Shown here piece by piece: positions 36,602 to 63,698 of a stretch of DNA of 64,000 nt (position 1 is its first letter; each line of letters begins with the position of its first letter). Source of the stretch: Ostreococcus lucimarinus (Eukaryota). Location of the stretch: the NCBI GenBank assembly GCA_000092065.1, contig CP000593.1; one strand, given 5' to 3'. The position numbers were made by a program, and so were the translations under genes. Below the pieces are notes generated by a model that had not been told where the DNA came from, did not search any database, and saw only the letters and a program-made list of their open reading frames with translations.

Positions 36602-38011
36602 CTACTGCGCCTCGGCTATGCCGCGAACGATGCCGTTCGCGTGCGCCAAGCCGGTGACGATGACGCACGTGACGACTTCGTCGTCGTCTTCATCAATCCG
36701 CGGCGCTTGCGACGCCTCGACGCTCGCGCTCGCGAGTAAATACCCAGCCGGATGTGTCTCTAACGCGTGCACGTCGCACTCGTCCATTCCTTCGATCCAA
36801 ACCTCCAATTTCCGAGCCTTTGTCGTCGGGCGCTCGCCCTCCACCACGCGCGTCACTCGTGCGCGGCGCATGGAATCCTCAACGGCCACGGTTCCAGTAC
36901 GTCGAGCCGCATCGCCTAGAATCTCAAAGCAAGAACTACTCACGTAATGTCTCGCGCGCCCGAGTAAACACCCGAGCTCGGCGCCCACGAGGGATCCGCC
37001 ATTCGCTTCCGCGAGCGAGTCCATGAGCGCTAGCCAACGCGGCTCCCACAAGTTCAGCCTTCTCGTTTCGCCCCGTTTCAGCGGACGTTTCAGCGTGAAG
37101 CACGGCACCGCGCCAGCATCACTCGGGGTGAATGTTTGCATGCTCTTCTTCGTCGCCGACGGATCGGTGGAAAACCCAAATCGCACGCGGCGTACCCGCC
37201 CTCGAGCGATGCCCGAGCACACGTCGACGGCGTTCAACGCGTTGGCGCACAACACCTCGTCTCTTTCCATCCACAGCGTCTCCACGAGCGGGCAAAATAA
37301 TAAAAGCGCAAGGAACACGCCGACTGCGTCCACGAGACCGTTCTCCGCTCCGTTCGGCATCGCCAAGCTCGCCAACGTCGCCGCGACGAACGCCGCCGCC
37401 GGTCCCGCGAGCGGCGTCAGATTTCTCGGCTCGTCCATGAGAGCTCTCGCCACGTCCGCCGCGGCGAGCGCGCCATCGCTCGAAACACCCACGGATCCAC
37501 CATCCCACGCGTTTTTCACGTACGCCAACACCGTTTTCCACCGTTCGATCGCGAAAGGGTTCGTCCCGAACGCGCGAGCCGCCAACGCCTCGCCTATACC
37601 TCTCGCCCGCACGTCCCCGTACACCGTCAGCGCGTCCTCGCGCTCTGATTCGATGATACCGGTCAACAAATCGCTCCCGTATTCGGAATCGTCGATCACG
37701 CGCGCGCGTTCGACGAAGCTCGCGACGAGGGCGTCGGCGCGCTCTTGGTCGAGCTCGAGCACCACAGCCTGCGGTTTCGCGCGTCGTATGACCCGTCGAA
37801 CGTCTGCCGCCGCCGCCGCGCTCGCGTGGGAGGTACCGACGACGTAGAATTCGCACTGCGTCGCGCGGGAGGGTCGAGAGACGTCGAGTTTGAGGCTTTT
37901 TGAGACGAATCCCGTGCCGGGAGGGAGCCAGGTCGGGACGGCGGCGCCCGACGACGACGACGACGACGACGGGACGTCCGGGACGACGACGCGCACGCAC
38001 GCGGCGCGCAT
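36602..38011 (-). CDS. TraB-family protein with C-terminal Lon-N (LON substrate-binding)-like domain
   Basis: FYVVGTSHAS...AVVLELDQERA is the TraB signature. The C-terminal 150 aa carry RRLNLWEPRWLALMDSL, resembling the Lon N-terminal/PUA-like fold. Confidence 0.65.
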   Translation of the reverse strand: MRAACVRVVVPDVPSSSSSSSGAAVPTWLPPGTGFVSKSLKLDVSRPSRATQCEFYVVGTSHASAAAAADVRRVIRRAKPQAVVLELDQERADALVASFVERARVIDDSEYGSDLLTGIIESEREDALTVYGDVRARGIGEALAARAFGTNPFAIERWKTVLAYVKNAWDGGSVGVSSDGALAAADVARALMDEPRNLTPLAGPAAAFVAATLASLAMPNGAENGLVDAVGVFLALLLFCPLVETLWMERDEVLCANALNAVDVCSGIARGRVRRVRFGFSTDPSATKKSMQTFTPSDAGAVPCFTLKRPLKRGETRRLNLWEPRWLALMDSLAEANGGSLVGAELGCLLGRARHYVSSSCFEILGDAARRTGTVAVEDSMRRARVTRVVEGERPTTKARKLEVWIEGMDECDVHALETHPAGYLLASASVEASQAPRIDEDDDEVVTCVIVTGLAHANGIVRGIAEAQ

Positions 38012-38176
38012 GGCGATCGACGCCGACGTCGGGCGCCTCGCGCGCGTCGCGACGTGAAGTTTGGGTCGGTTCTCTGTGTGTGACGTAGCAATTTGTCTAT
38101 TCTACCCGACGGGAGGGACGACGACGACGACGCGGGCGGCCTACCTCGCTTCACCGCGGCCGCGATCGCGCGGCTT

Positions 38177-41100
38177 TCACTTTTCCATCCTTGCCGCTCG
38201 TTTCTTTTTAGCCTTCTCTTCCTCTCGAGCGAGTTTCAACGACCTGGACGCGACGAAGCCTTCAAACGTCAAATCGCCCGTCTTCGCGATCGCCTCCTCG
38301 TCCGAATCGATGTCGTCGTCGGTGTCGTCTTGCGCGAGGATTTGCCTGCCATCGCGCCACTTTAACGTGGACTTTCGGTTGTCGATGCCGATGATCTTGG
38401 CCGTGACGTCGCGGCGAGTCTCGTCTTCTTCTTCTGACGAATATTCGGCCGTTTGCAAACGGTCGCCGGTGTCGGTGTCAAACAGCTCTCGACTTTGATC
38501 GTGGACGTTGCGAGCGACGAAAACATCGCTCCAAAATTGACGCCACACCGCATCGCCGGAGAGCGTACACGTGCGCTTATTGATGATGATCATCGCTTGC
38601 AAGATGAAACCGTATCGCTCGTCGATGGTGACGTTAATCTTCGGGGGCGTTCCTTTCCACTTTTTGACGTCGATGGGCTCGGTCCAGCCGTATTTCACCA
38701 CGCGACGGTTGTTCTCCTCCTTAAAAGCCGTCGACTCCACGTTGCGCGTCGCGATGAATCGCCGCCATCGCGACAAATGAATGGGTTTATTGAGTGTGAG
38801 CTTTTTCGTCTCCACGCTGCAATGCATGTAGGCCAAGTAGCGCATCAAATAAACAATTCCACCGCCCAACGCCGACCACGCGAGCATGTTCAAGATGAAC
38901 CAAACCGCGGGAACATTCACTATGTACGGCTGCACCGCTTCGACGGCCCATCGAATCTCGGTGAACGAAAGGTATTGCCCCGTGAATCGATCGAGAATGT
39001 CAAACGCGAGCGTCCCCGACAAAATCACTTGCGTCACCTCGAGCGTGGTGCTGTTGCGCGCCTGCGCTCGGAAAGCATCCTCTAAGTTTTTCGTCGTCCC
39101 TTCTATCGCCTCGTTGATGCGGAGCTTTCTTCGTGAGCCGATGACGGCGTTCATTTCTCGCAGAGACTCGAGATCGTTGACGCACGCCGCGATGACTTTT
39201 TCCAAGTCAACGGCGCGTCTTTGCAAGCGTTTCCACGACGGTTCCAACTGAAACAAGTCGTACAACACTTGCGACGCGCCGTCGCTCATATCCGCGCTCA
39301 ACTTTTCACGAGACGTGTCGACGTTTTCGAGCGACTCGAGCACGAACTGCTGAGTGGCGCTCAAGATCGTCACCGTCGTCGTGTGATCGGCGAGGCGCGA
39401 ACGAATGCGCGTTACGTTCGTCGGATCGATCTGATAGGTTTCAATCAACGCTCGCGTCTTCTTCAACTCGTCGTTCAGCGCGAAACAACTGCTGAAGACA
39501 CTTTTGATGAACAACGAGCGAGCTTGGAACGCTGAATATGTCGCGAGAAGCTTGTGATGACGTTCGGTGCGCGGACCAAAGACGACGACACCGCGTGAAC
39601 CAAAGACGATGACTTCTTGTTCGTTCAGGTCGTACGCGTAAAACGTCGCGCCGATGACTTGCTTGAGCTCGTTTTCGTTATCTTCACCATCCATGTACGC
39701 CGCGGCTTTCAGTTTTGGCGTCGCGCGCTCGGCGATGATGCACGTAAACTTGTCGCGATTGTCCGGCTCGCCCTTGTATGTGATGTTCAACATGGAGCGC
39801 TGACGCTCGGAAAATAAATTTCCCACCAGCGAGCTCGTGTCTTCGTGGACGTCGGAAAGTAAGCGCGCGAGTAAATCGACGCTGATATCGTTTCGAATTC
39901 GATCGGCGATGCCGTTGACGACGATGCCGTAAGTGATGGCGCCGTTTTCCCGAAAGTTGATGCCGAAAACCTCGATTTGCTGCTGCACCAAGTTACTCTT
40001 GGGCGCCCCGGTGGCGAGCAAGTCTGCCTCGACGTTTACGAATCGCGTTTCGTCGACGTCGAGGACTTTTAGCTCGGTTTTATTGTCGGCGTTGATCCCG
40101 ACCACCATGTTGAATTCGTCCTGCGTCGCGCTCGCTTCCGCGGTGAACATACCGCCCGCGACGCGGTCTCCCGTGCCGAGTTTTCTACAGAAAGAAACCA
40201 TTTCGTTCGATCCCATCGGCACGTATTCGGTGACGATGATTTTCACCGAGTCGAGCAAGATACTTTCACTCAGGCGCGGGTCGCGAATATCGCGACTACT
40301 TTGAACGGCGCCGCCGAGCACGCGTTTTGCCTTTTTGTGCCCGTTCAACGCGTTCGGTGTGAACGCATCGGAGCTCAGCATGTGCGGAGGGATGTACGGA
40401 GACGAGACGTACGGCACGTCTTCGACGTCCGTGATGGTGGAGCGGATGCGGACCCCGATCGAGGGGACGGTGAGGAAAAAATCCGAGGACTCGCGGTCGT
40501 ACCGCACCTCGAGGAGGTGACCAGCTTCGTGCACCAACGAATCTACCGACTGGCGCATCGCGCTCGTGAACCGTCCCGAGGCCGTCATCCTCTGCAAGAA
40601 TTCGCTCCCCTTCTTGGAAATCTTCAACAACGTCGAGTGATCGTACGTCTCGCTCGTCACCTTGAGCGCCGTGATGAAACCAAGCTCACGCAAATCGTCT
40701 AAATCGTCTCGTCCCTCTTCCGAGACGTTCAAATACCTCGGACACGCTCCAAATATCTTTTCTGATTTTGGCGCGTAATCGTAATCGAACACCGCGTTTC
40801 GCACGATGCCCTCGTACACGAGCACCAGGAGCGGCAGCTCGCGAATCCAGGGAGAACGTTTGTTGTTGTTGTTGTTGGAAACCGCAGACTTCGACTTCGA
40901 CTGTTTCTGAGACGCGTCGGTGTACAAACTCAGCATGTACAACAATTTCAACGCCTCGGGCGATTCCTCCATCTCCCGCTCGCGCGACTCGACTTCCCGC
41001 CGACGCCGAGTCGTGGACGAGGCGGAAGTGCTCGAGTCGGCGTCTGAAGCGCTCGAGTCCCGGGCGTCCCGGGCGTAGTGCGAAGAATCATCGTCATCAT

Positions 41101-41227
41101 CGTCATCGTCGACGCGAATCGTTGCGTCCGAATCCGAATCGTAGCCCTGCGGCGCCCCGCATTCCGCGCACGTCGCCGCGCCGCCGCGCACGACGGCCCG
41201 GCACGTCGCGCACCGCGTCGAATCCAT
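38177..41227 (-). CDS. Large conserved-looking hypothetical protein (1016 aa): N-terminal zinc-ribbon, acidic tract, two predicted TM helices near the C-terminal third
   Basis: Uninterrupted ORF with normal composition. CATCRAVV...CAECGAP is a C-x2-C...C-x2-C pattern; hydrophobic stretch VPAVWFILNMLAWSALGGGIVYLMRYLAYM. GTG at 41236, first ATG is 41227. Confidence 0.7.
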   Translation of the reverse strand: MDSTRCATCRAVVRGGAATCAECGAPQGYDSDSDATIRVDDDDDDDDSSHYARDARDSSASDADSSTSASSTTRRRREVESREREMEESPEALKLLYMLSLYTDASQKQSKSKSAVSNNNNNKRSPWIRELPLLVLVYEGIVRNAVFDYDYAPKSEKIFGACPRYLNVSEEGRDDLDDLRELGFITALKVTSETYDHSTLLKISKKGSEFLQRMTASGRFTSAMRQSVDSLVHEAGHLLEVRYDRESSDFFLTVPSIGVRIRSTITDVEDVPYVSSPYIPPHMLSSDAFTPNALNGHKKAKRVLGGAVQSSRDIRDPRLSESILLDSVKIIVTEYVPMGSNEMVSFCRKLGTGDRVAGGMFTAEASATQDEFNMVVGINADNKTELKVLDVDETRFVNVEADLLATGAPKSNLVQQQIEVFGINFRENGAITYGIVVNGIADRIRNDISVDLLARLLSDVHEDTSSLVGNLFSERQRSMLNITYKGEPDNRDKFTCIIAERATPKLKAAAYMDGEDNENELKQVIGATFYAYDLNEQEVIVFGSRGVVVFGPRTERHHKLLATYSAFQARSLFIKSVFSSCFALNDELKKTRALIETYQIDPTNVTRIRSRLADHTTTVTILSATQQFVLESLENVDTSREKLSADMSDGASQVLYDLFQLEPSWKRLQRRAVDLEKVIAACVNDLESLREMNAVIGSRRKLRINEAIEGTTKNLEDAFRAQARNSTTLEVTQVILSGTLAFDILDRFTGQYLSFTEIRWAVEAVQPYIVNVPAVWFILNMLAWSALGGGIVYLMRYLAYMHCSVETKKLTLNKPIHLSRWRRFIATRNVESTAFKEENNRRVVKYGWTEPIDVKKWKGTPPKINVTIDERYGFILQAMIIINKRTCTLSGDAVWRQFWSDVFVARNVHDQSRELFDTDTGDRLQTAEYSSEEEDETRRDVTAKIIGIDNRKSTLKWRDGRQILAQDDTDDDIDSDEEAIAKTGDLTFEGFVASRSLKLAREEEKAKKKRAARMEK

Positions 41228-41483
41228 CGTATCCACCGATGGATTCGACCGCGGAGTGACGACGAACGAACGAACGCGCGAAAACCACCGACGTCCTCGC
41301 CCGAGCCCTCAACCTGTAACATTCGCGATCGCGGATCGACGGCGTCAAGCCGCGAAGATCTGTCGCAAACCCACCATCGAGCGACGTATAATACCAATTA
41401 TTCGTCCACCTCGCCGAGTTAAGCCTCGAAATAAAGAGCATGGGCAGTCGAATGTCCGCGATGTTGTGCGTATGCATAAACAG

Positions 41484-41597
41484 TCTTCCTTAACTCAGCT
41501 GGTAGAGTGTCAGACTGTTAGGAAAAAGTCTCCGTCGAATATGACGGCTGCTCCGATAGAGATCTGGAAGCCGCGGGATCGAAACCCGCAGGAAGAG
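41484..41597 (+). tRNA. trnN(GUU): tRNA-Asn (anticodon GUU, 41517..41519) with 41-nt intron (41521..41561)
   Basis: Hand-folded cloverleaf. Acceptor TCTTCCT/AGGAAGA (7 bp), D-stem ACTC/GAGT with AGCTGGTA loop. Anticodon stem TCAGA/TCTGG, loop CTGTTA|intron|A. T-stem GCGGG/CCCGC with loop ATCGAAA, discriminator G. Intron at the canonical 37/38 position and pairs with the anticodon region (AGTCT:AGACT). Confidence 0.8.
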
Positions 41598-41599
41598 AT

Positions 41600-41609
41600 G
41601 TGTCGACAT
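41600..41609. promoter_or_regulatory. ZDRE-type palindrome GTGTCGACAT directly 3' of the tRNA
   Basis: Perfect match to RTGTCGACAY, 2 nt after the discriminator base; lies inside the 223-bp repeat. Confidence 0.4.
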
Positions 41610-41619
41610 CAAACCTTAC

Positions 41620-41624
41620 TTTTT
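41620..41624 (+). terminator. Probable RNA polymerase III terminator (T5 run)
   Basis: TTTTT located 23 nt downstream of the tRNA 3' end. Confidence 0.5.
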
Positions 41625-41840
41625 CCCATACCCGATTGTCCGTGATGGAAAAGCGACACGACAACACTGTGACTTTCGTCGTTTCGGGGTGACGGATAGT
41701 ACTTTAAAAAATTTATCGCTATGAGTAATAAAAATAAACTTTTTTTTTGAGTTGGGGCACCCCAACATGATAAAACCGCACATCGACGTTGATGTACCGC
41801 ATGTAAGATTTCTCCAGAACCAATCGTGTGAGTGAAGTGG

Positions 41841-42338
41841 TCAAGCCAAGCCGCGTAACTCATCTACCGTAAATTGATACTTGTCGAGACTGCGCTTCGA
41901 AGGCAGCGTGCCGCGCGCTCGGGCATTCTTGAGGCACGTCTTGCGCAGTATTCCTTTTGCGTGCTGCTTGTAATAATTGAGTTGTCTGTAGTTACCATCG
42001 CCGCCGTCCCGCTTCGGCGTATATTGAGCTCTGCTGTAGGCTGGACTCTCGTCCACGTTCTCGCGGCACGCGTGTTTCTGGCTGCGTCCAGCAGCTCGGG
42101 AGTTGAATAAGCCGTCACGCTTCTCTCTCATGTAGGCACCTTTACGTTGATGGAGCTCTCCAGCTGGAATGTCCTTTTCGAGAACTCTCACGTCCGCGTC
42201 GCCAAACGTGAAGATTGGATGTCGTGCGTATTTATGCGAGGCAAGGCGCGCTCTGAGCGAACCCGTCGTCGATCCGATGTACGTTTTGTTACATTTCGCA
42301 TTATCGCTAAACATTTCGTACACGCATCCCGACGGCAT
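41841..42338 (-). CDS. GIY-YIG nuclease-domain protein (homing-endonuclease-like)
   Basis: N-terminus GCVYEMFS...KTYIGSTTGSLRARLASH fits the GIY-(10-11 aa)-YIG...R...H module, followed by VLE. Basic C-terminal half; ATG confirmed at 42338. Confidence 0.6.
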   Translation of the reverse strand: MPSGCVYEMFSDNAKCNKTYIGSTTGSLRARLASHKYARHPIFTFGDADVRVLEKDIPAGELHQRKGAYMREKRDGLFNSRAAGRSQKHACRENVDESPAYSRAQYTPKRDGGDGNYRQLNYYKQHAKGILRKTCLKNARARGTLPSKRSLDKYQFTVDELRGLA

Positions 42339-42516
42339 TTGTCCTGGTTACCTATCTATCCCTAAGAAAATATTGTTGCCAAAAGTGCCTCCTCCTGCGG
42401 TTTGCAGTCACATCCGAGAGACCATAGGTACGCGTATCGCTGCGTGGGCTGCAAGGTCCGGAATGTAGATACCGAACCGCCTGATTTCACACCTGGACGT
42501 TCGTGATCCGTCGAGA

Positions 42517-42707
42517 CCTGACGAAATGACGAACTTGTTTTGTCGTCCACAAATTCGTCAACCCGTCGTTCGGTGACACTTTGTGTGTACCAATGATGAA
42601 AATGACGAAATGTTAAAATATTTTAATGTTTATTTTTATTTTAGATCTATGACAAGCAACAGTGTGGACCTTTATGAAAACAGTTCGTCATTCGTCATTT
42701 CGTCAGG
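42517..42707. repeat. 17-bp perfect inverted repeat (42517..42533 / 42691..42707) around an AT-rich core, with reiterated AATGACGAA/TTCGTCATT motifs
   Basis: CCTGACGAAATGACGAA versus its exact reverse complement TTCGTCATTTCGTCAGG. Further copies of the TGACG-containing motif near 42601 and 42684. Confidence 0.85.
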
Positions 42708-42772
42708 ATCCAAACCATGGTCTTTTTGGTGTCTCGTTGAGTCTTCATATTGCAAATGTACGAATTACAAAA

Positions 42773-43069
42773 TTAGTATGAGCACCAGACGACCGCCGGC
42801 GCGAGCTCCGTCTCCCCTGTGTACCCATTGTCCTTCAGCCACTCGAAGCACCCGTCGCGGTGAATTTCCCAATAGACGCCCTTCTCGTCTCTACCTTGCC
42901 TCAGGTGGTCCTCTTCCATTGGGACCCTGTGGCCCTTTTCCTTCTTGAAGAAGTCCTTGAGCTTATTGCCGACCTTCGTCGCGCTATCTTGACCGCGCGC
43001 AGCCGCTGGCAACCACGTCTGGTATTCGATGAAGATGTCACTGTGTGCATAAAAATGACTTGCGCTCAC
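42773..43069 (-). CDS. Orphan ORF without ATG start (possible terminal exon or gene fragment)
   Basis: 98-codon frame opening with GTG directly after an in-frame TGA; composition looks coding (GVYWEIHRDGCFEWLKDNGYTGE). A 63-nt GTAAGC...CAG intron (43041..43103) could link it to upstream sequence, but no initiator ATG was found. Confidence 0.25.
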   Translation of the reverse strand: MSASHFYAHSDIFIEYQTWLPAAARGQDSATKVGNKLKDFFKKEKGHRVPMEEDHLRQGRDEKGVYWEIHRDGCFEWLKDNGYTGETELAPAVVWCSY

Positions 43070-43169
43070 ATCGGTGTGGGCTCACTATAAAGGACAAGCT
43101 TACATGTCGGAAGAGTTGCCCGAGTCCACATCTCCACCCTGTTCCGCTTCAGTGTCACCTAGAAAGACA

Positions 43170-44810
43170 TCAGACTAAGCCGTCGTTTTGAGAGGGCGCC
43201 GACTTTGCCTTTGGTTTTGCCTTCGACTTTGAAGTGGGTTGCGGCCTGATCTCCTCTTCGATCTCCTCGTCGTCGACCAAATCTTCGTCGATTTCTTCGT
43301 CGTCTTCGTCATCGACTTCGTCGTCTTCGTCTTCGTCGTCTTCGTCTAGAAAGACATCACCCATGACTGCTCTCCAGCCATCAGAACCCATTTCGAATTC
43401 TTCGTCGGTCAAGAGGCAAGAGTCCAACGTTGATTGAATTTCATCGTATTTAAGATCCTTGCCAATGAACACCAGTTCTTGTCGGCGATCACCATAAGGC
43501 CCCTCCCAGTCTTTACGAAGTTCTTGCTTTATCCCCTGTGAGCCGACCCAAGCATTTTTATTCAGCGCGGTCCATCGGCTTGATCCTTCGAGAGAGTAAA
43601 TATTACCAGCCTGACTGAAAACAATTATCAAGTCGTGGGCATCACTGAGCCACGTTACACCCTTCGAACGTAGCAGCACACCAATTTCACCTTCCCTTTT
43701 ACGGCGCTTGAGTTTCATCGCTTCTTGTCGCGCTCGAATATCTTTCACTGCACTCCAGTCTACACTTGGTGTCTCTTCATCTTTTTCTTCATCACGGTCA
43801 TCGGCCTCGAGGGAGCTGAAGAAGCGCTCGACAAATGAGCCTAAAAACCGTTTGGGATGAAAAGGTCTTCTGGCTCGGTAAATGAAAGACGTAATACCGA
43901 ACCGACTATCGTGACGTGTTTGGGAAGAACTTGGTGCAAGCGTGACCTCGCTTAAGGCTGTTTCTCTCATGCGAGCTCGCTTACAGCATGGAGACTCACC
44001 TTTGTCCCTAGCGCCGGCGCAGCATGACTTCACAGATGTTGCTTCTATCTCTTGTTCCCATGTTATGAAACCAGCAAAGTCATTCTCTTTGTAAAGTTTT
44101 GTATTGACGATTCGCGTAACGTCGATCGCGCCGTTCACAGCTTCAAGAATATCAGCACGTGAATTGAGAAGTTGTATCTGCGCTTTAATCTCGGCGAGTT
44201 GTTCGTCATCGACAGTGTCGACCTTGTTCAATACGACGACATTCGCGTACTCTATCTGTTCAGCCAACAATTGAGAGTAAGACTGCCTGTTCACAGCTGA
44301 CGCCCTGAAAGAATCAATCATGTCGAGAAAGTCACCTGCAGCGATGACCGTCACGCACGTATCCAGCCGCGCCAGTGTGCTCAAATGTTCATGCTCATCA
44401 ACGTGCGCAGCTTCATGATCGTGATCGTCCTCACAATTTGCGAAGAGTTTCGCAATTTCCGCCGGTTCCGACACTCCTGATGCCTCTACGATCATGTAGT
44501 CAAAATTGCCACTCTTGGCCATGTCCCCGATTTGTTTTACAAAGTCTCCGCTCAACGAACAGCACACGCATCCGTTCTGCATGGCAACCACCTCGTCGCT
44601 CTGCAGCAAAGCGGAATCATCGATTAATTTTTTGTCGATGTTCAACTCCGCGACGTCGTTCACGACGACGGCACACCGAAACTTTCCGTTCGCGTCTCGC
44701 TTAGCTTCGAGCACGCGTTTCAGAGTTGTCGTCTTCCCAGCGCCGAGGAACCCGCACAGCGTTGTCACCGGCAATCGATTATGATTGGCGATTGCGGCGG
44801 GTGTGGACAT
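43170..44810 (-). CDS. COG0523/CobW-family metallochaperone GTPase (ZNG1/ZCP-like zinc chaperone)
   Basis: P-loop GFLGAGKTT, canonical CxCC metal motif (NGCVCCS), His-rich stretch DDHDHEAAHVDEHEH, CobW_C region and a long Asp/Glu tail. ORF start 44915 is GTG, first ATG is 44810. Confidence 0.9.
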   Translation of the reverse strand: MSTPAAIANHNRLPVTTLCGFLGAGKTTTLKRVLEAKRDANGKFRCAVVVNDVAELNIDKKLIDDSALLQSDEVVAMQNGCVCCSLSGDFVKQIGDMAKSGNFDYMIVEASGVSEPAEIAKLFANCEDDHDHEAAHVDEHEHLSTLARLDTCVTVIAAGDFLDMIDSFRASAVNRQSYSQLLAEQIEYANVVVLNKVDTVDDEQLAEIKAQIQLLNSRADILEAVNGAIDVTRIVNTKLYKENDFAGFITWEQEIEATSVKSCCAGARDKGESPCCKRARMRETALSEVTLAPSSSQTRHDSRFGITSFIYRARRPFHPKRFLGSFVERFFSSLEADDRDEEKDEETPSVDWSAVKDIRARQEAMKLKRRKREGEIGVLLRSKGVTWLSDAHDLIIVFSQAGNIYSLEGSSRWTALNKNAWVGSQGIKQELRKDWEGPYGDRRQELVFIGKDLKYDEIQSTLDSCLLTDEEFEMGSDGWRAVMGDVFLDEDDEDEDDEVDDEDDEEIDEDLVDDEEIEEEIRPQPTSKSKAKPKAKSAPSQNDGLV

Positions 44811-44986
44811 GATGTACGGCGATCGACGTCTCCGCGCGCGAACGAGCCGAAGAGGCGTCGCGAAGTGCGGCGATGCGCGCGCGTCGTGCACGTGTCGACG
44901 ATTCGCGTCGTGCACGTGTCGAGGATCGTCGTACGCGACGCCCCGCGAAGCCCATCACGGATCGCGTCGCGACGCGCGTCGTAAAC

Positions 44987-45143
44987 ATGTCGACACGCAT
45001 GTCGACATATTTACCCACGCGCGTGTACGCATTGAACCCCGTGATGCATCTATATACGAAAAACGTCTCGACGCACATGTCGACATATTTCGACATATCC
45101 AAGTACCACCGAGATGTGTCGACACTGCGGCGGATGTCGACAT
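44987..45143. promoter_or_regulatory. Cluster of five perfect ZDRE decamers (RTGTCGACAY) in the COG0523/ZIP divergent promoter
   Basis: ATGTCGACAC 44987..44996; ATGTCGACAT 44999..45008; ATGTCGACAT 45077..45086; GTGTCGACAC 45116..45125; ATGTCGACAT 45134..45143. A one-mismatch copy GTGTCGACGA lies at 44892..44901. TATAAA at 45167..45172. Confidence 0.6.
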
Positions 45144-45368
45144 TTTGTCGTTCGCGAGTCGTGACTTATAAACGACCGCCCTCCATCGCGCCGGTTCGGT
45201 TCGTATGCCGCTTTAGTTTGTGCGCAGCCGCACTTACCGACGCCGGCGAAGACGACGACGACGACGGAAACGATGACGAACGAAAACACGAAGAACACGA
45301 AGACGACGATGCCGCCGCGCGAACGCGCACGCGGTGCGAGGACGGTCGAGCGACGACGAGGGCGAACG

Positions 45369-46802
45369 ATGCGCTGCGCGAGCGCGCTCGGTGGTGGCAT
45401 CGCGATCGTCGCGAGCGCGCTCGCGCAGCGCGGCGCGCACGCGTCCGGCGCGCACGCATTCGAATGGGCTGGAATCTTTGAGACGCCAGAGAATGAATAC
45501 GTGTGGCAGGCGCAAAAGGTGGCCGATAAGTACGCCGCCGATACCATGAAAATGGTCATCTACGACGAAATCGCCGCCGGACACGACGAGCTCGAAGCCC
45601 GCGAGGATAGCGGTGATACCGCAATCGGGGGAGCTTGTACGACGGCTAAGATACGAGATAGTGTTTTGACACCTGATAGTGGGTGTGTCAACCTTGAATT
45701 TGACAACACCTGGCACACGACGCCGTTTAAGATTAATACGACTGGCATCGACGCGATCTCAATCTTCGCTGAGCACGTTCCCACCGAGTTCGAGCGCGAC
45801 GCGCACTATCTCAAGGACCTCCACGGAGATGACGTGGTGCCAAAAGCTTCACTTCCCGAAGCATCCACCGTGAGCGAATCGAAATCAAAACCGTGGGCCA
45901 ACGCCATTGGGGCGGCAATTATCGTCAATATCGTCACACTTTCTGGTGTGGTCTTTCTCATCCCGAGTATCGCTAAGAAGCAGAAAGCGTACCCTGAAAC
46001 TGTGAGTTGCACAATTAACTCGTTTGCCGCCGGCGCACTTCTTTCGGCTGCGTTTTATCTGATGTTCTACGAAGCCACGCATTTAATCAAACCTGCTGGC
46101 TCGGATGAGGCAGAGCAGACCGCATGGTGGGCTTCCGCTTCTATCTTCGGCTTTCTCATGGCCTACTTCATCGACTTTGGTATCTCTGTCGTGTTCCCAA
46201 CTCTTGGAAATACAGCGAAGACAACCGATGCGGAACTTGCAGTCAAAGGCGCTCAAGATGACTGTGATACTTGTACTTGTAACTCACACAAGTATCGCGT
46301 TCGAAGTGGTATCATTCTTGGAGATTTCATGCACAACCTAGTGGATGGTATTTTCATTGGCTTCGGCTTTCTGAACTGCGACAGTACCATGGGATGGTCG
46401 ATCACCGCCGCGACCGTCTATCACGAAATCGCTCAAGAGCTTGCTGACTACTTGGTGCTCGTAGACCCCTTCCAGGGCGATCTCGCGCCGTTGCCGACGC
46501 TGACTTTAAACTTCGTTTCCGGCTTGAGTGTCATTCTTGGCGTCCTCATTAGTGTTGGATCGGGAAATAACAACGACTTCTGGCATGGACTGCTGCTCGC
46601 CTTCGGTGCTGGAGTCTATCTGCAAATCGCCGCCGCAGAGTGCATGCCCCGAGTATCAGTGAGCGCCACTTCACCTCGTCTTCGCGCGACGAGCATTCTC
46701 ACCTTCATCGTCGGCGTTGTTGCCATCAGTCTCGTGCTCCTCAACCACAAGCATTGCACAGGCGGTGGCGGTGGCGGAGACTCACACGCACACGCGCACT
46801 AA
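45369..46802 (+). CDS. ZIP-family (ZRT/IRT-like) divalent metal transporter with N-terminal extracytoplasmic domain
   Basis: ZIP signatures GDFMHNLVDGIFIG and YHEIAQELADY, multiple TM helices, Cys/His-rich loop (DDCDTCTCNSH), C-terminal GGGGGGDSHAHAH. ATG at 45369 gives a signal-peptide-like start (MRCASALGGGIAIVASALA); the upstream in-frame ATG at 45273 is also possible. Confidence 0.85.
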   Translation: MRCASALGGGIAIVASALAQRGAHASGAHAFEWAGIFETPENEYVWQAQKVADKYAADTMKMVIYDEIAAGHDELEAREDSGDTAIGGACTTAKIRDSVLTPDSGCVNLEFDNTWHTTPFKINTTGIDAISIFAEHVPTEFERDAHYLKDLHGDDVVPKASLPEASTVSESKSKPWANAIGAAIIVNIVTLSGVVFLIPSIAKKQKAYPETVSCTINSFAAGALLSAAFYLMFYEATHLIKPAGSDEAEQTAWWASASIFGFLMAYFIDFGISVVFPTLGNTAKTTDAELAVKGAQDDCDTCTCNSHKYRVRSGIILGDFMHNLVDGIFIGFGFLNCDSTMGWSITAATVYHEIAQELADYLVLVDPFQGDLAPLPTLTLNFVSGLSVILGVLISVGSGNNNDFWHGLLLAFGAGVYLQIAAAECMPRVSVSATSPRLRATSILTFIVGVVAISLVLLNHKHCTGGGGGGDSHAHAH

Positions 46803-47025
46803 TGAGAGCGGTAAAAAAATGTCAATTACTATCAAATCAAGTTGTGGCAAACACACCCACGGCCACTGACGGAGATCTATTTTTCAAGCTAGAGGATCAT
46901 ATAAATTGTAAATCGAAACGCTCTTCGTAATTTACGGCACCTGTTCCTCGATCTCCTGGCGAACATCGATGAATTATTTCGATAAGATGTCCCAGATGTT
47001 ACCCACACCACGGTACTTGTGAAGC

Positions 47026-47369
47026 TTAATCCAGATACGCGCGCACGCCTTTCTGAAGCATGGTCGGTACCTCGGCTTTCAACTTGTCTGGGAGCGTCGC
47101 GTCGGCGTCCTTGACCTCGCGCAGAAAATCGAGCACCCTATTGGTGGAGAACTGTCAGGGAAGGATCCAAGGTGGCGGCATTTGATACACAGGTTGCGCC
47201 AGGCTTTGTTAGACAGCAACGGACTCGATTTTACATCATCCGCCAGTATTGCAATTCCTACACGCTTCCCATTTAGCCAGTGCTTGGGCTCCTCGAATTG
47301 GTCTGTTTCGGGATTATACAGACTGAGCATCTCTGGGGTCAAATACTCGTCCCACACGGAGGCGTTCAT
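47026..47369 (-). CDS. Small orphan gene, 2 exons (47369..47235, 47151..47026); may be 5'-truncated at the repeat junction
   Basis: Two coding-looking frames join exactly by an 83-nt intron (47152..47234) with GTAAAA donor, CTAAC branch and pyrimidine tract + CAG. The open frame continues upstream to a TTTACAG acceptor-like site at 47419..47425, abutting the right repeat. Confidence 0.3.
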
Positions 47370-47432
47370 CAGGTGCCCATCGAGTTCCTTGTATTGCTTC
47401 AATCTCGTCGCGGTATCTCTGTAAACAATTTT

Positions 47433-47532
47433 GCTGGTAGAGTGTCAGACTGTTAGGAAAAAGTCTCCGTCGAATATGACGGCTGCTCCGATAGAGATCT
47501 GGAAGCCGCGGGATCGAAACCCGCAGGAAGAG
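47433..47532 (+). pseudogene. 5'-truncated copy of tRNA-Asn (D-loop to 3' end, intron included)
   Basis: Identical to 41498..41597 but lacks the acceptor 5' strand and D-stem 5' strand, so it cannot fold. Confidence 0.85.
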
Positions 47533-47534
47533 AT

Positions 47535-47544
47535 GTGTCGACAT
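47535..47544. promoter_or_regulatory. ZDRE-type palindrome GTGTCGACAT in right repeat copy
   Basis: Perfect RTGTCGACAY match, the counterpart of 41600..41609. Confidence 0.35.
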
Positions 47545-47770
47545 CACACCTTACTTTTTCCCACACCCGATTGTCCGTGATGGAAAAGCGACACGACAAC
47601 ACTGTGACTTTCGTCGTTTCGGGGTGACGGATAGTACTTTAAAAAATTTATCGCTGTGAGATTCACCCCCATGGGGGGAGCTCGGCTTCCCTGATTTTTT
47701 TGTCACTTTTTCACGACGCCGCGAACCCCTCGTCCCGAACTCCGAGACGCGACGCGAGACATCCATCCCA

Positions 47771-48943
47771 TCACACGAGTCGCCCCCCCGCGAGATAATC
47801 GGCGACTCGCACGACGCGCGCGTTCGCGTCGAACGCGCCCGCGTGGACGTCGTCGTCGCCCGCCGCGAGCGCGGCGCCTTCGTCGTCGAAATCCACCTCG
47901 TCGAGCGCTCGGTAGCTCTCCATCAACGCGGGATCTTTGGCGGCCATGAGCTTTAAATCTTCCAACACGCGGTCCAGATTGACGTCGTCGACGAAGTTTC
48001 CCGCGAACGCCACCGTGCAATCGAGGTTTCGAACGGCGTGCGGCGAGCCGCCCGGCACGAAAAGCACCTCGCCCGGGCCAAGATCGACGTCCCATCGGCG
48101 CGCGCCGAATTCACGCGGGAGCGGTAACATTCCCATCTCTTCTTGTTCCTCCAACGGTGGCATCGCGGGATCGAGCGTGCCGCGCGACCAGCTCGGCCGT
48201 AAAAACGCGAGCGATTCGCGCGAGAAGACGGTCCATCGCTTCGTGCCGCGCACCACGGCCATGAAAAAGTGCCCCTGCCACTGATCGACGTGCAGGGACG
48301 ATCGCGTGTTCTTCGCGGCGACAAACAAGCTCGGCCACGACCGTGAAAATGCCGTCAATCGCATCGTGCGCTGCATGTAATCGTGTGCCACGTACGCCGG
48401 TACGCGCACGCTCTCCGACAACGACGGCAGCTTGAGCGGAATCGACGTGTCGTACAAGTAACTCCCCGCCCCTCGATCGTCCACGACTTCCGCGAAAAAG
48501 TCCTTTAAATCCAAAACGTCCGTCACCTCGCACGACAGCGTCGCGCGTCGGTGACCATCCTTCCTCGTGACGGCGACTTTTTTATTCCCGGCGCGCCGCG
48601 TCAACCACGCGCACGTCTCGCCGTCCGCGCCGTCCTCCGTCAGCGCGCTCCCGAGCCCCTCGATCACGACCGGGGTATCCGTGGCGACGTATTCGAGTCG
48701 AAAACGTCGCGGCGTGAGATCGCGCGCGTGCACGCGCGCGACGTCGCGTCCCGTCGTCGTCGGTTTTTCGACACCCGAATCTGCGGCGGCGGCGGCGGCG
48801 AGCGTCGCGCGCGCGCGCTCGACGCGCGCGACGATCGCGTCGACGTACGCGCGACGACCGTCGTCGGTCTCTCGGGCAGCGCGCGCGGCGAGATCGGCGC
48901 GCTCGACGTCGAGGCGCGCGATCTCTTCGTCGAAAAGCGTCAT
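47771..48943 (-). CDS. JmjC-domain (cupin) protein
   Basis: SSLHVDQ...H Fe-binding pattern, FVPGGSPHAVRNL, JmjC-like length. Confidence 0.8.
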   Translation of the reverse strand: MTLFDEEIARLDVERADLAARAARETDDGRRAYVDAIVARVERARATLAAAAAADSGVEKPTTTGRDVARVHARDLTPRRFRLEYVATDTPVVIEGLGSALTEDGADGETCAWLTRRAGNKKVAVTRKDGHRRATLSCEVTDVLDLKDFFAEVVDDRGAGSYLYDTSIPLKLPSLSESVRVPAYVAHDYMQRTMRLTAFSRSWPSLFVAAKNTRSSLHVDQWQGHFFMAVVRGTKRWTVFSRESLAFLRPSWSRGTLDPAMPPLEEQEEMGMLPLPREFGARRWDVDLGPGEVLFVPGGSPHAVRNLDCTVAFAGNFVDDVNLDRVLEDLKLMAAKDPALMESYRALDEVDFDDEGAALAAGDDDVHAGAFDANARVVRVADYLAGGRLV

Positions 48944-56700: not shown

Positions 56701-57237
56701 TCACAGCGCGTCTCGCGAGGATAGACGACGAGAATAATCATCGCTCGACGGCGTCGTCGTCGCCGCCGCGCGCTCGAATTCTCGATCGGAATCTCGAAAT
56801 AAAATCCCGAGCGCCTCGAGCGCGGAGCCCCCGCGGGTCTGTAGAATTTCCTTCATCGGCGCCACCGAGGCGTAACCCACGCGAGGCTTCGCGCGTCGTT
56901 CGCCCTCGTCCGCGCGCGACGATTCCGACGAATCGTCGCGCCGTTCGATCCCGAGCGCGTCGAAATCTTGGAAAAGCGTCCCCGCGCGTTCTCGTTCTCG
57001 TTCTCGTTCTCGTCTCGGGACGTCCCGCGCGCGCGCCTCTTCGCTCTTCGCGCGCCGGTGCTTTCGCGCGTCGCGCGAGACCGCGCGCGGACGAAACTCG
57101 ACGCGCGCGTTCGCGTCCTCGCGCTTCGGCGCGCGTCGCGCGCGGCGCGGCGACGCCGGCGCGCTCGCGACGTCCCGTCGCGCCGCCGCGTCTCGCCGCG
57201 GCGAGGGCACCTTCACCCGGCTCGACGACGTTCCCAT
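56701..57237 (-). CDS. Hypothetical protein (possible N-myristoylated MG... start)
   Basis: The C-terminal part of ORF 56701..57684 has non-repetitive composition (TLFQDFDALGIERRDD...MKEILQTRGGSALEALGILF). ATG at 57237; contains an (RE)4 repeat. Confidence 0.25.
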   Translation of the reverse strand: MGTSSSRVKVPSPRRDAAARRDVASAPASPRRARRAPKREDANARVEFRPRAVSRDARKHRRAKSEEARARDVPRRERERERERAGTLFQDFDALGIERRDDSSESSRADEGERRAKPRVGYASVAPMKEILQTRGGSALEALGILFRDSDREFERAAATTTPSSDDYSRRLSSRDAL

Positions 57238-58085: not shown

Positions 58086-59405
58086 ATGTCGGCGTCGCGC
58101 GCGCTTCGTCGCGTCGTCGCGGGCGCGTCGAACGCGTCGCGACCCGCGCGCGGCGCGTCGGCGGTCGCGGACGCCGCGCCGCGCGTCGGCGGCGGCGAAG
58201 GGCGCGAATCGACGTCGTCGTCGATGCCGGCGTCGCGGTGGCGTCGCGGCGCGCGCGCGCGCGGCGCGTGCGACGGGACGACGTCGTCGCGGTGCGCGCC
58301 GTCGTCGTCGTACCTGGAGTCGAAGCGTCGACGCGCGGCGGTGGCGGCGGCGATCGCGCGGTCGACGCGCGCGGCGGCGGCGGCGGCGGCGCGGCGAGCG
58401 CGCGCGTGGGACGCGACGGCGCGCGCGGACGCGCGCGACGGCGCGTACCGCGACGACGGCGCGCGTCGCGTCGAAAAGTTGTCGCGGGTCGGCGTGCTGG
58501 GCGCGCCGAACGCGGGGAAGAGCGCGCTGGCGTGCGCGCTCGTCGGCGACGCGGTGAGCGCGGTGAGTCGAAAGACGAACACGACGCGGACGCGCGCGCT
58601 GGGGGTGCGCACGGTCGGGGACGCGCAGGTGGTGTTCGTGGACGCGCCGGGGATCGTGGGGCGCGAGCACTACAGGAACGCGGCGCACGCGAGAAAGGTG
58701 GAGGACGCGACGGCGCTGGCGAGCGAGTGCGACGCGTTGGTCTTCGTCGTGGACGCGGCGAGACAGTTGGAGCGACGGGATTTGCGCGTGCTGGAGGCGG
58801 TGCGAAAGACGCGAGCGGCGCTGGGGGAGATGCGCGCGCCGCCGGAGGCGGTGCTGGTGCTGAATAAGGTTGATAAGATTCCGAAGGAGCGACGCGCGGG
58901 GTTGACGAAGATGGTGGACGATTTCCGCGCCGCGGGGGATTTTGAATTCGCGCGCGTGTTTCCCGTCAGCGCGCTCACGGGGGCGGGAACGAGAGCGCTG
59001 ATGGATCACATCGTCGCCGGCGCTCGGGAGGCGCCGTGGGAGTTCGACGCGACGTCGACGAGCGATATGACGCCGGCGCAGAGGGCGCTGGAAATCGTGC
59101 GCGAGAGCGTGTACGACGGCGTGCACGAAGATTTACCGTACGGCATCGACATCGCGCACGTCTCGTGGGAAGACTTTAGAAACGGTGACGCGCGCATAGA
59201 GCAAAATATTTTAGTCGACACCGCGTCGCAGAGGAAAATAGTCGTCGGAAAGTCGGGCGAAGTCGTCGGGCGAATCGGCATCAACGCCAGAGCGATGCTC
59301 GAGCGCGCGCTCAATCGCAAAGTGCACTTGATCCTGAACGTGAGACTGAAGAAGAAGAAGAAGAACTATCGCAGCGATGACGTCGTGTTCGCGGAGCAGT
59401 ACTGA
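58086..59405 (+). CDS. ERA: Era-like GTPase (organellar) with C-terminal KH domain
   Basis: VGVLGAPNAGKSAL (G1), SRKTNTTR, VDAPG (G3), NKVD (G4), KH-type QRKIVVGKSGEVVGRIGINAR; ATG at 58086 follows an Arg-rich non-coding-looking stretch. Confidence 0.8.
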   Translation: MSASRALRRVVAGASNASRPARGASAVADAAPRVGGGEGRESTSSSMPASRWRRGARARGACDGTTSSRCAPSSSYLESKRRRAAVAAAIARSTRAAAAAAARRARAWDATARADARDGAYRDDGARRVEKLSRVGVLGAPNAGKSALACALVGDAVSAVSRKTNTTRTRALGVRTVGDAQVVFVDAPGIVGREHYRNAAHARKVEDATALASECDALVFVVDAARQLERRDLRVLEAVRKTRAALGEMRAPPEAVLVLNKVDKIPKERRAGLTKMVDDFRAAGDFEFARVFPVSALTGAGTRALMDHIVAGAREAPWEFDATSTSDMTPAQRALEIVRESVYDGVHEDLPYGIDIAHVSWEDFRNGDARIEQNILVDTASQRKIVVGKSGEVVGRIGINARAMLERALNRKVHLILNVRLKKKKKNYRSDDVVFAEQY

Positions 59406-63425: not shown

Positions 63426-63698
63426 CGTCGGCGCCGACGCTCGCTCGGGCGTCGTCTCGGGGATTCGTCGCGGCGCGCGCGAGCGTCCGGGCGCGCGTCG
63501 TCGTCGCGCTGTGCGGCGCCGAGCGCGACTGCGAGCGAAAAGCACACTTTCCAGCGCTTCAAAACGCGGCGACGCGGCGCGCGTCGCGTCGAGCGCGACC
63601 GCGGCGCGCGCGCGCGTCGCGAAGGCTTTATAACGGGCGCGCGCGGCGTCGGCGCGCGGAATCGCCGCGCGACGCGCGCGAAAGACGGCGAAACGTCG

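Follow-up and report, generated by a model that had tools for sequence, protein, structure and literature searches.

A tRNA-Asn gene of Ostreococcus lucimarinus with putative spliceosomal-type introns in its wild alleles and strain-variable islands at its 3' part

The U6 small nuclear RNA gene of Schizosaccharomyces pombe is transcribed by RNA polymerase III (Pol III) and carries an mRNA-type (i.e., spliceosomal) intron, and bacterial and archaeal genomic islands and integrative elements target tRNA genes. Among tRNA genes themselves, those with an intron at position 37/38 that is cut by the tRNA splicing endonuclease form the ordinary nuclear class. Permuted and multi-intron tRNA genes are known from Cyanidioschyzon merolae and from prasinophytes, and the tRNA-Asn(GTT) gene of Ostreococcus tauri is permuted at 37/38 (Soma 2014, PMC3978253). 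Here, we analyzed a tRNA-Asn(GUU) gene of Ostreococcus lucimarinus CCE9901 (contig CP000593.1 of assembly GCA_000092065.1), which lies within a stretch of 64,000 nucleotides (nt) that we refer to as the window (Table 1). Several ORFs of the window match CCE9901 proteins exactly. Taken as one explanation, we regard it as fairly probable that this is a functional nuclear tRNA-Asn(GUU) gene, that it carries one or two spliceosomal-type introns in wild O. lucimarinus and its closest relatives, the reference allele being poor in introns, and that it is a recombination target for variable islands, served by a presumed recombination enzyme. With somewhat less assurance, we lean towards the broader view that nuclear tRNA genes of Ostreococcus harbor, beside the tRNA-type intron, genuine spliceosomal introns that lie within the D-loop, the anticodon stem, the T-loop and the T-stem, that these are polymorphic in nature and that a tRNA gene is also an island landing site.

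By itself, the window gene is nothing out of the ordinary for its lineage, and its interest lies in its population context. Like other nuclear tRNA genes interrupted at 37/38, it has the cloverleaf, the intron position, the h helix and 4-bp H helix of the bulge-helix-bulge (BHB) motif and the T-run. It departs from that class in A54/A60, A10:U25, weak A and B boxes, a conserved upstream block and the lack of an h' helix. As to the disrupted genes of C. merolae and prasinophytes, the same genus has such genes and a permuted tRNA occupies this very slot in another lineage (contig L016); unlike them, the window gene is colinear and five of the six wild insertions show spliceosomal signals instead of a BHB. 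With U6 of S. pombe, the locus has in common a small structured non-coding RNA gene of the Pol III class and a GT-AG interruption with a branch site. In contrast to U6, the host is a tRNA, six sites in two tRNA species are concerned, the insertions are polymorphic, a tRNA-type intron lies alongside and splicing is predicted from sequence. Finally, the locus recalls prokaryotic tRNA-targeting islands: one end has an intact tRNA and the other a direct repeat of the tRNA 3' part, occupancy varies between strains, different islands share a site and a circular junction is possible. It differs from them by its eukaryotic host, a 228-nt repeat that includes the intron and 128 nt of flank, and the lack of a recognizable integrase.

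GT-AG insertions in wild alleles

Marine metagenome contigs (denoted by L numbers) that match the window at 99-100% identity are common. In most contigs of the tRNA-Asn locus, standard tRNA finders called no tRNA and the gene is interrupted. The first insertion (ins1, at tRNA position 16/17) was present in 12 of 17 full copies of the O. lucimarinus type and in two of five contigs of a sister lineage (L013-L015 and L023-L024). The second (ins2, at 64/65) was found in L010, L020, L027 and all five sister contigs, and also at the matching site 47523/47524 of the right-hand repeat copy (see below) in L006, L008, L012, L021 and L022. Overall, four of the sites (15/16, 16/17, 30/31 and 64/65) are occupied in O. 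lucimarinus and its closest relatives, with no more than two insertions per allele, and the remaining two sites (29/30 and 57/58) occur in same-slot tRNA genes of more distant lineages. Insertion-free alleles are those of the window, L011 and L028; such alleles are what precise RNA-mediated intron loss would leave. The 27 contigs hold nine distinct alleles, and deletion of the insertions yields an identical 73-mer in every one. Since contigs L003-L016 had been fetched via neighboring proteins and not via the tRNA, this restoration is not a product of the search pattern. When the intron-containing gene of O. lucimarinus is compared with that of the sister lineage, 289 positions match and 2 do not; identity in the flanks is 77-92%.

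All six insertions have a 5' GT and a 3' AG, measure 87-150 nt and contain no run of four T. Their 5' sites read GTAAGT (twice), GTTAGT (twice), GTGAGT and GTACGT. The motif ACTGAC is present in five of them and GCTGAC in the one of L016, in each case 19-31 nt upstream of the AG, and the 3' ends of ins1 and ins2 are CGCAG and CACAG, respectively. Otherwise, the six are unrelated in sequence. Of the O. lucimarinus introns outside chromosome 2 that are confirmed by expressed sequence tags, 87% contain ACTGAC; their branch point lies 20-35 nt from the AG and their 3' ends favor C at -5 together with R at -4 (CGCAG, for example). Taken over every annotated intron of the species, the median length is 111 nt (PMC2483917). 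The insertions thus resemble these non-chromosome-2 introns in ACTGAC, branch-to-AG distance, CGCAG/CACAG ends and a length of ~100 nt, but differ from them in the 5' site, for which the consensus is GTGCGTG (PMC2483917), and in a host gene that is not protein-coding. We used this published consensus; a motif scan of the window genes gave no usable local one. Of 511,178 window segments with lengths equal to those of the insertions, none showed the combined GT/branch/AG pattern. Judging from these sequence signals, the six insertions are spliceosomal-type introns inside tRNA genes.

Two other ideas about the insertions were considered. We saw no evidence for an introner family in the window and the loci examined: the insertions are mutually unrelated, have no second copy there, and show no target duplication at their boundaries. 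The idea of a small nucleolar RNA within the introns was dropped, as Rfam returned no family in the loci with ins1 or ins2.

The insertions might also be tRNA-type introns at non-canonical positions that are cut via a BHB, their GT and AG ends being coincidental. Ostreococcus processes permuted tRNA genes, so that its endonuclease accepts a BHB outside 37/38 (PMC3978253), and the 96-nt insertion of L157 reaches three of four pairs in the H helix. The five other insertions, however, reach only 0-2 of four, compared to 3-4 of four in all 37/38 introns. Moreover, a BHB intron needs neither the 5' GT nor the (A)CTGAC at 19-31 nt from the end nor the AG, all of which are found in 6/6 insertions and, in combination, nowhere in the background segments. 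We hold this route to be very improbable as an account of the insertions.

More weight has to be given to the possibility that the GT-AG insertions inactivate the gene, the alleles being dead and tRNA-Asn coming from another gene or from an uninterrupted allele in a mixed population. Insertion-free alleles do coexist with the interrupted ones, the gene need not be single-copy, doubled accessions hint at a duplicated block, and spliceosomal splicing of a tRNA precursor is without precedent in the literature searched. We nevertheless consider inactivation unlikely, on the same grounds on which splicing of the insertions seems probable to us. First, the exons are invariant, being identical in 9/9 alleles, while introns and flanks differ or are unrelated. 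Second, intron-bearing alleles are the majority in the wild, as seen from the counts for ins1 and from the presence of ins2 in every sister contig. Third, the boundaries are exact to the base and the insertions carry species-specific splice signals, unlike random insertions. Fourth, O. tauri has 45 tRNA genes (PMC13578239), which points to low tRNA redundancy in the genus.

Several points weigh against the view that the insertions are spliceosomal introns of a functional, single-copy gene. None of the six has GTGCGTG; their 5' sites are canonical GTRNGT-like or U1-complementary. Given its H helix, the L157 insertion may instead be cut by the endonuclease. The few variants inside ins1 and ins2 spare the splice signals, but are too few for significance. 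A recent exchange of this gene segment, in place of selection, could explain why the introns are nearly identical in two lineages. Both the splicing of the insertions and the use of Pol III are things that we infer from the sequence. As to copy number, the window gene is probably the sole tRNA-Asn(GUU) gene of CCE9901. However, the O. lucimarinus proteins P0001 and P0031 (window 47771-48943 and 41841-42338) have two GenBank and two RefSeq accessions each, with the order reversed between the series (ABO99433/ABP01174 and ABO99431/ABP01176), so that this block is possibly present twice in the reference assembly, which bears on the number of tRNA-Asn copies. In addition, our metagenome scan demanded this T-arm, and a divergent second tRNA-Asn gene would escape it.

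Should splicing of the insertions occur, this would be the first case of spliceosomal introns within tRNA genes as far as our literature search goes: we found no report of such introns in any tRNA gene in the literature searched, of which our coverage is incomplete, and the spliceosome goes unmentioned in a review of tRNA genes of algae and plants from 2026. Two RNA-splicing systems would then meet in one 300-nt precursor, a tRNA precursor would be a substrate of the spliceosome, and the spliceosome would act on a transcript probably made by Pol III. Being polymorphic within a species and shared with its sister, the introns would offer a natural system for intron gain and precise loss on a 73-nt scaffold with unambiguous boundaries. 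Since standard tRNA finders miss the interrupted alleles, 'missing' tRNA genes of compact algal genomes may hide in the same way.

The tRNA-Asn gene, its 37/38 intron and the same slot in relatives

The intron search of ARAGORN (option -i) returned a colinear, non-permuted tRNA-Asn(gtt) with a 41-nt intron after position 37; without this option, ARAGORN called no tRNA in the window. Rfam matched the gene to RF00005 with 49 bits (gathering score 29, E = 1.8e-07), and the minimum free energy (MFE) fold predicted for the spliced 73-mer is a perfect cloverleaf. These results bear out the canonical cloverleaf and the intron at 37/38 that an earlier note on this DNA, made from the sequence alone, had described. 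The same is true of the two intron pairings proposed there: the predicted MFE fold of the precursor holds both the AGACU:AGUCU pairing with the anticodon arm and the CCGUC-GAAUAU-GACGG hairpin. In the BHB test, which looks for an h helix and for a 4-bp H helix with a 3-nt bulge on either side, the window intron scored 4/4 for the H helix (CTGT/ATAG) and 3/3 for the h helix and lacked an h' helix, which amounts to a relaxed motif. The H helix is kept at 3-4 of four pairs in all six 37/38-intron sequence variants tested (the window and five others). As its partner sequence differs between lineages (ATAG, TCGG, TCAG, ACGG) with the helix kept, the intron looks as expected of a substrate of the tRNA splicing endonuclease. 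Three further ARAGORN -i calls in the window, i.e., Thr at 56866-56963, Phe at 58146-58258 and Leu at 63474-63618, were rejected as false positives; they are GC-rich with poor arms, likely coding, and without Rfam support.

Eukaryotic initiator tRNAs are recognized by the anticodon CAU, A1:U72, three G:C pairs in the anticodon stem and A54 together with A60. The earlier note had read the T-loop as ATCGAAA and called it initiator-like. The reading of the loop and of A54/A60 stands, and the likeness goes no further: the tRNA has the anticodon GUU, a U:A pair at 1:72, an anticodon stem (TCAGA/TCTGG) without three G:C pairs, and U at position 20. An identity as eukaryotic initiator tRNA is ruled out by the anticodon, the 1:72 pair and the anticodon stem.

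We used orthologs of the left neighbor protein to retrieve the same intergenic slot from other lineages. This neighbor gene matches MJ1567/MJ1566_N in Pfam and has homologs in many algae and stramenopiles. In the sister lineage (L013-L015; neighbor protein 92% identical), the slot consists of the JmjC gene, ~575 nt and the neighbor gene and holds one tRNA-Asn, whose exons and 41-nt intron equal those of the window. In L025/L154 (59%), the exons and T-loop are those of the window and the intron measures 39 nt, with its core alone in common. The tRNA-Asn of L155 (55%) differs at 12 positions, ten of which form five fully compensatory pairs; no pair is broken and the T-loop is again ATCGAAA. In L157 (58%), the tRNA-Asn has an ordinary TTCAAGT loop. 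The slot of L016 contains a permuted tRNA on the strand opposite to the window gene, which we rebuilt by hand. Its 3' half lies 55 nt upstream of its 5' half and its T-loop, ATCGAAA, is split at 57/58. The rebuilt tRNA is a perfect 73-nt cloverleaf with the anticodon GUA and an Asn-like body (U1:A72, G73, 54/73 positions as in the window tRNA-Asn), and may be either a Tyr tRNA or an anticodon-shifted Asn tRNA. Rfam gave no tRNA match on the L016 spacer. With ATCGAAA common to the L013, L025, L155 and L016 lineages and TTCAAGT in L157, A54/A60 is widespread but not universal. The intron and the T-loop, which the earlier note had taken for unusual, thus turn out to be lineage-typical, as they recur in the same-slot tRNA-Asn genes of several lineages, apart from the ordinary loop of L157. 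This is largely the outcome under which that note would itself have called the gene ordinary.

These relatives also speak to the suggestion that the tRNA derives from a prasinovirus, a chlorovirus or another element, or is a pseudogene, so that the odd T-loop would be due to decay or viral origin. The part from G15 onward does lie in a repeat beside a low-GC island with a GIY-YIG-like open reading frame (ORF), the internal promoter boxes are imperfect, and A54 together with A60, absent from all 116 viral or phage tRNA-Asn sequences compared, is rare generally. However, a tRNA-Asn sits at the syntenic position in island-less lineages, L155 has kept the T-loop beside five compensatory stem changes, and both the Rfam score and the perfect cloverleaf fold are those of an intact tRNA. 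Moreover, the T-arm pattern had no match in IMG/VR and the GIY-YIG-like ORF had none on viral contigs, the closest of 120 viral tRNA-Asn sequences shares only 56/73 positions with the window, and a looser viral scan yielded unrelated phage-type tRNA-Asn genes alone. We give practically no credence to a viral, element or pseudogene origin; because a tRNA-Asn occupies the same slot in island-less lineages, the window tRNA-Asn is a host gene and not a viral one.

Proposed transcription and processing of the tRNA

The consensus of the internal promoter is TRGYNNARNNG for the A box and RGTTCRANTCC for the B box (PMC7954030). Compared with these, the B-box region of the window gene, GGATCGAAACC, has two mismatches and its A box, TAACTCAGCTG, has one, which corresponds to A10. 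T-runs of 6-7 follow the tRNA gene in other lineages and islands, and the presence of T-runs behind every copy, including the T5 run of the window, fits Pol III. Upstream of the gene, a non-coding block of ~60 nt, CGAGCGACGTATAATACCAATTATTCGTCCACCTCGCCGAGTTAAGCCTCGAAATAAAGAG, is nearly invariant across lineages, one of which has a neighbor protein just 59% identical, and its partial core GAGTTGAGTCTCGAAA was found in L155 (neighbor protein 55% identical). The weakened A and B boxes, the splitting of the A box by ins1, the permutation in O. tauri and this conserved block together suggest an external promoter. From its sequence, the block may be such a promoter, serving the tRNA or else the divergent neighbor gene.

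We envisage the following course of expression. The tRNA-Asn gene would most likely be transcribed by Pol III, and with weakened A and B boxes transcription would probably rely on the conserved upstream block. The transcript would end at the T5 run. From precursors of interrupted alleles, the spliceosome would remove the GT-AG insertions before the tRNA endonuclease acts. The endonuclease would then excise the 41-nt intron via the BHB-like motif formed by the anticodon stem and the pairing of C32-U35 with ATAG. The spliced product, which has the A54/A60 T-loop typical of the lineage, would decode AAC and AAU.

Table 1 Features of the tRNA-Asn locus (window coordinates unless a contig is named).
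Feature	Position	Strand	Remarks
Left neighbor gene, MJ1567-like	38177-41236	-	Pfam; slot retrieval
Conserved upstream block	41378-41438	+	46-106 nt 5' of tRNA; four-lineage alignment; candidate external promoter
tRNA-Asn(GUU) gene	41484-41597	+	ARAGORN intron search, Rfam RF00005, cloverleaf of spliced form
Exon 1	41484-41520	+	positions 1-37
A box	41491-41501	+	1 mismatch
Canonical intron, 41 nt	41521-41561	+	at 37/38; fold, BHB test
AGTCT in intron	41527-41531	+	complementary to A29-U33
Hairpin CCGTC-GAATAT-GACGG in intron	41532-41547	+	predicted fold
ATAG in intron	41556-41559	+	pairs with C32-U35; central 4-bp BHB helix
Exon 2	41562-41597	+	positions 38-73; discriminator G73
T-loop ATCGAAA (A54, A60)	41578-41584	+	direct sequence reading
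T5 run, Pol III terminator-like	41620-41624	+	23 nt past tRNA 3' end
Insertion, 113 nt, unrelated to ins1	41498/41499 (tRNA 15/16)	+	L026/L031; empty in window
ins1, 100 nt (90 in sister lineage)	41499/41500 (tRNA 16/17)	+	empty in window
Insertion, 111 nt	41513/41514 (tRNA 30/31)	+	L026/L031; empty in window
ins2, 87, 88 or 104 nt	41588/41589 (tRNA 64/65)	+	empty in both window copies
Insertion, 96 nt	tRNA 29/30		L157; one position left of 30/31; site empty in window
Insertion, 150 nt	tRNA 57/58		L016 permuted tRNA, in T-loop; GT...GCTGAC...AG
Permuted tRNA of L016	L016:9427-9705	+	same slot; rebuilt by hand
Left repeat copy, attL-like	41498-41725	+	tRNA positions 15-73, intron and 128 nt of 3' flank
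Right repeat copy, attR-like	47433-47660	+	tRNA fragment without positions 1-14, and flank
Island A, 5707 nt	41726-47432	.	GC 0.50-0.55
GIY-YIG-like ORF	41841-42338	-	island A; weak Pfam match
ORF98	42773-43069	-	island A
CobW-family GTPase	43170-44915	-	island A; Pfam
ZIP transporter	45273-46802	+	island A; Pfam
ORF107	47079-47402	-	island A
GIY-YIG + ORF98 module, 1.2 kb	41822-43044; L152:3479-4006; L153:6322-7519		~93% DNA identity

Direct repeat and strain-variable islands

The earlier note had placed everything from the D-loop onward inside a repeat. Indeed, a 228-nt direct repeat starts at G15 and ends 128 nt past the tRNA. Its two copies are 98.7% identical, with three mismatches that all lie 3' of the tRNA, and the shuffle expectation for the 28-nt match of T-arm and acceptor is 0.00, which excludes chance. 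The right copy is probably an inert remnant. The two copies enclose island A, whose low GC alone is no mark of foreign DNA here, because the neighboring host gene is equally low (~0.55; window 38001-42000). Empty sites exist within the species, i.e., in L028, L020 and L027, where the tRNA and its 128-nt flank continue straight into the JmjC side. Island A is also absent from all other lineages examined (L013-L016, L155, L157). Since it is missing from some O. lucimarinus contigs, island A is a recent, polymorphic insertion.

The 5.7-kb island would have entered by recombination within tRNA positions 15-37. Such an entry would leave an intact gene that is island-linked from G15, and, at 47433-47660, the displaced positions 15-73 with their 128-nt flank. 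The flanks come in two haplotypes. The first, GACAACACTGTGAC, is found in all island-adjacent full copies, whereas the second, GACAAAACTGTAAC, is found at empty sites and in the right-hand copies of wild contigs; the right copies of L006, L008, L021 and L022 combine this empty-site haplotype with ins2. The split fits an intact gene with an island-brought 3' part together with a displaced host 3' part, although duplication followed by divergence fits too.

A second island of 3.9 kb (island B; L017, L018 and L030) has the same boundary, G15. The intact tRNA gene there differs in its 37/38 intron, its 3' flank is of unrelated sequence, and the partial copy starts at GCTGGTAGAG. Because of this foreign 3' part, local duplication cannot account for island B. 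In L017, the partial copy runs into yet other DNA, which suggests serial insertions. Finally, L012:810-1160 joins the right end of the island (ZIP side), a partial tRNA with ins2 and the left end of the island (GIY-YIG side), with a recombinant flank haplotype; this junction may be an excised circle, a tandem duplication or an assembly path through the repeat.

How the repeat arose can be seen in a second way, namely as a long target duplication or a duplication from double-strand-break repair that captured unrelated DNA. Pfam searches with every ORF of appreciable size from islands A, B and C (the last in L026) detected no integrase or recombinase, which counts against a targeted insertion, and islands B and C gave no domain matches at all. 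The two window copies, moreover, are nearly identical with the 128 nt of host-like flank included, and the haplotype difference between left and right could postdate the duplication. On the other side, island B shares the boundary G15 but not the 37/38 intron or the 3' flank, the L017 copy followed by other DNA suggests serial insertions, and the L012 junction shows the reciprocal arrangement of island end, tRNA part and island start. We regard either kind of duplication as rather unlikely. On the reading that islands recombine into the tRNA gene, the 3' part of the reference gene probably arrived with the island. The earlier proposal that the gene is partly element-derived is therefore plausible for its 3' part, given the island-linked flank haplotype and island B, but not with respect to a viral source.

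The GIY-YIG-like and ORF98 genes of island A recur as a module in the low-GC contigs L152 and L153, and at ~93% identity the module looks repeated and mobile. Besides the module, L152 codes for a Prim-Pol/DUF5906 protein and L153 contains GmrSD_C and methylase-like ORFs. The family of the GIY-YIG-like protein is confined to marine Ostreococcus-like sequences. Exact-protein look-ups of the ZIP ORF, the CobW ORF and the paralog P0034 gave no match. CobW and ZIP (window 43170-46802) lie side by side and form a pair for zinc homeostasis; only some O. lucimarinus genomes have it, and island A is possibly an adaptive accessory island. In collecting different islands, one of them with zinc-uptake genes, between att-like repeats, this eukaryotic tRNA gene is reminiscent of prokaryotic genomic islands. 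If our broader view of Ostreococcus tRNA genes is correct, the gene that carries the introns would at the same time be a landing site for strain-specific islands, as in bacteria.

Some minor observations were made in other contigs and at the repeat boundary. In L157, ~120 nt downstream of the tRNA-Asn, a stray copy of the 3' acceptor end, GTCGCAGGAAGAG with seven T behind it, may be a remnant of an older displaced 3' end. Island C contains an orphan tRNA 3' fragment on the minus strand of L026 (930-990), which reads CCAGGTTCGAATCCTGG and CGAACGCG followed by T6, has an ordinary T-loop and is preceded by three GTGAGT repeats; no 5' half was found for this T-arm fragment, and the gene could not be completed. 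Within the window gene, a CAGCTG palindrome at 41496-41501 covers positions 13-18. The start of the repeat (14/15), the 113-nt insertion of L026 (15/16) and ins1 (16/17) all fall there within 3 nt of each other, and three independent boundaries so close together suggest a recurrent hot spot of breakage or recombination.

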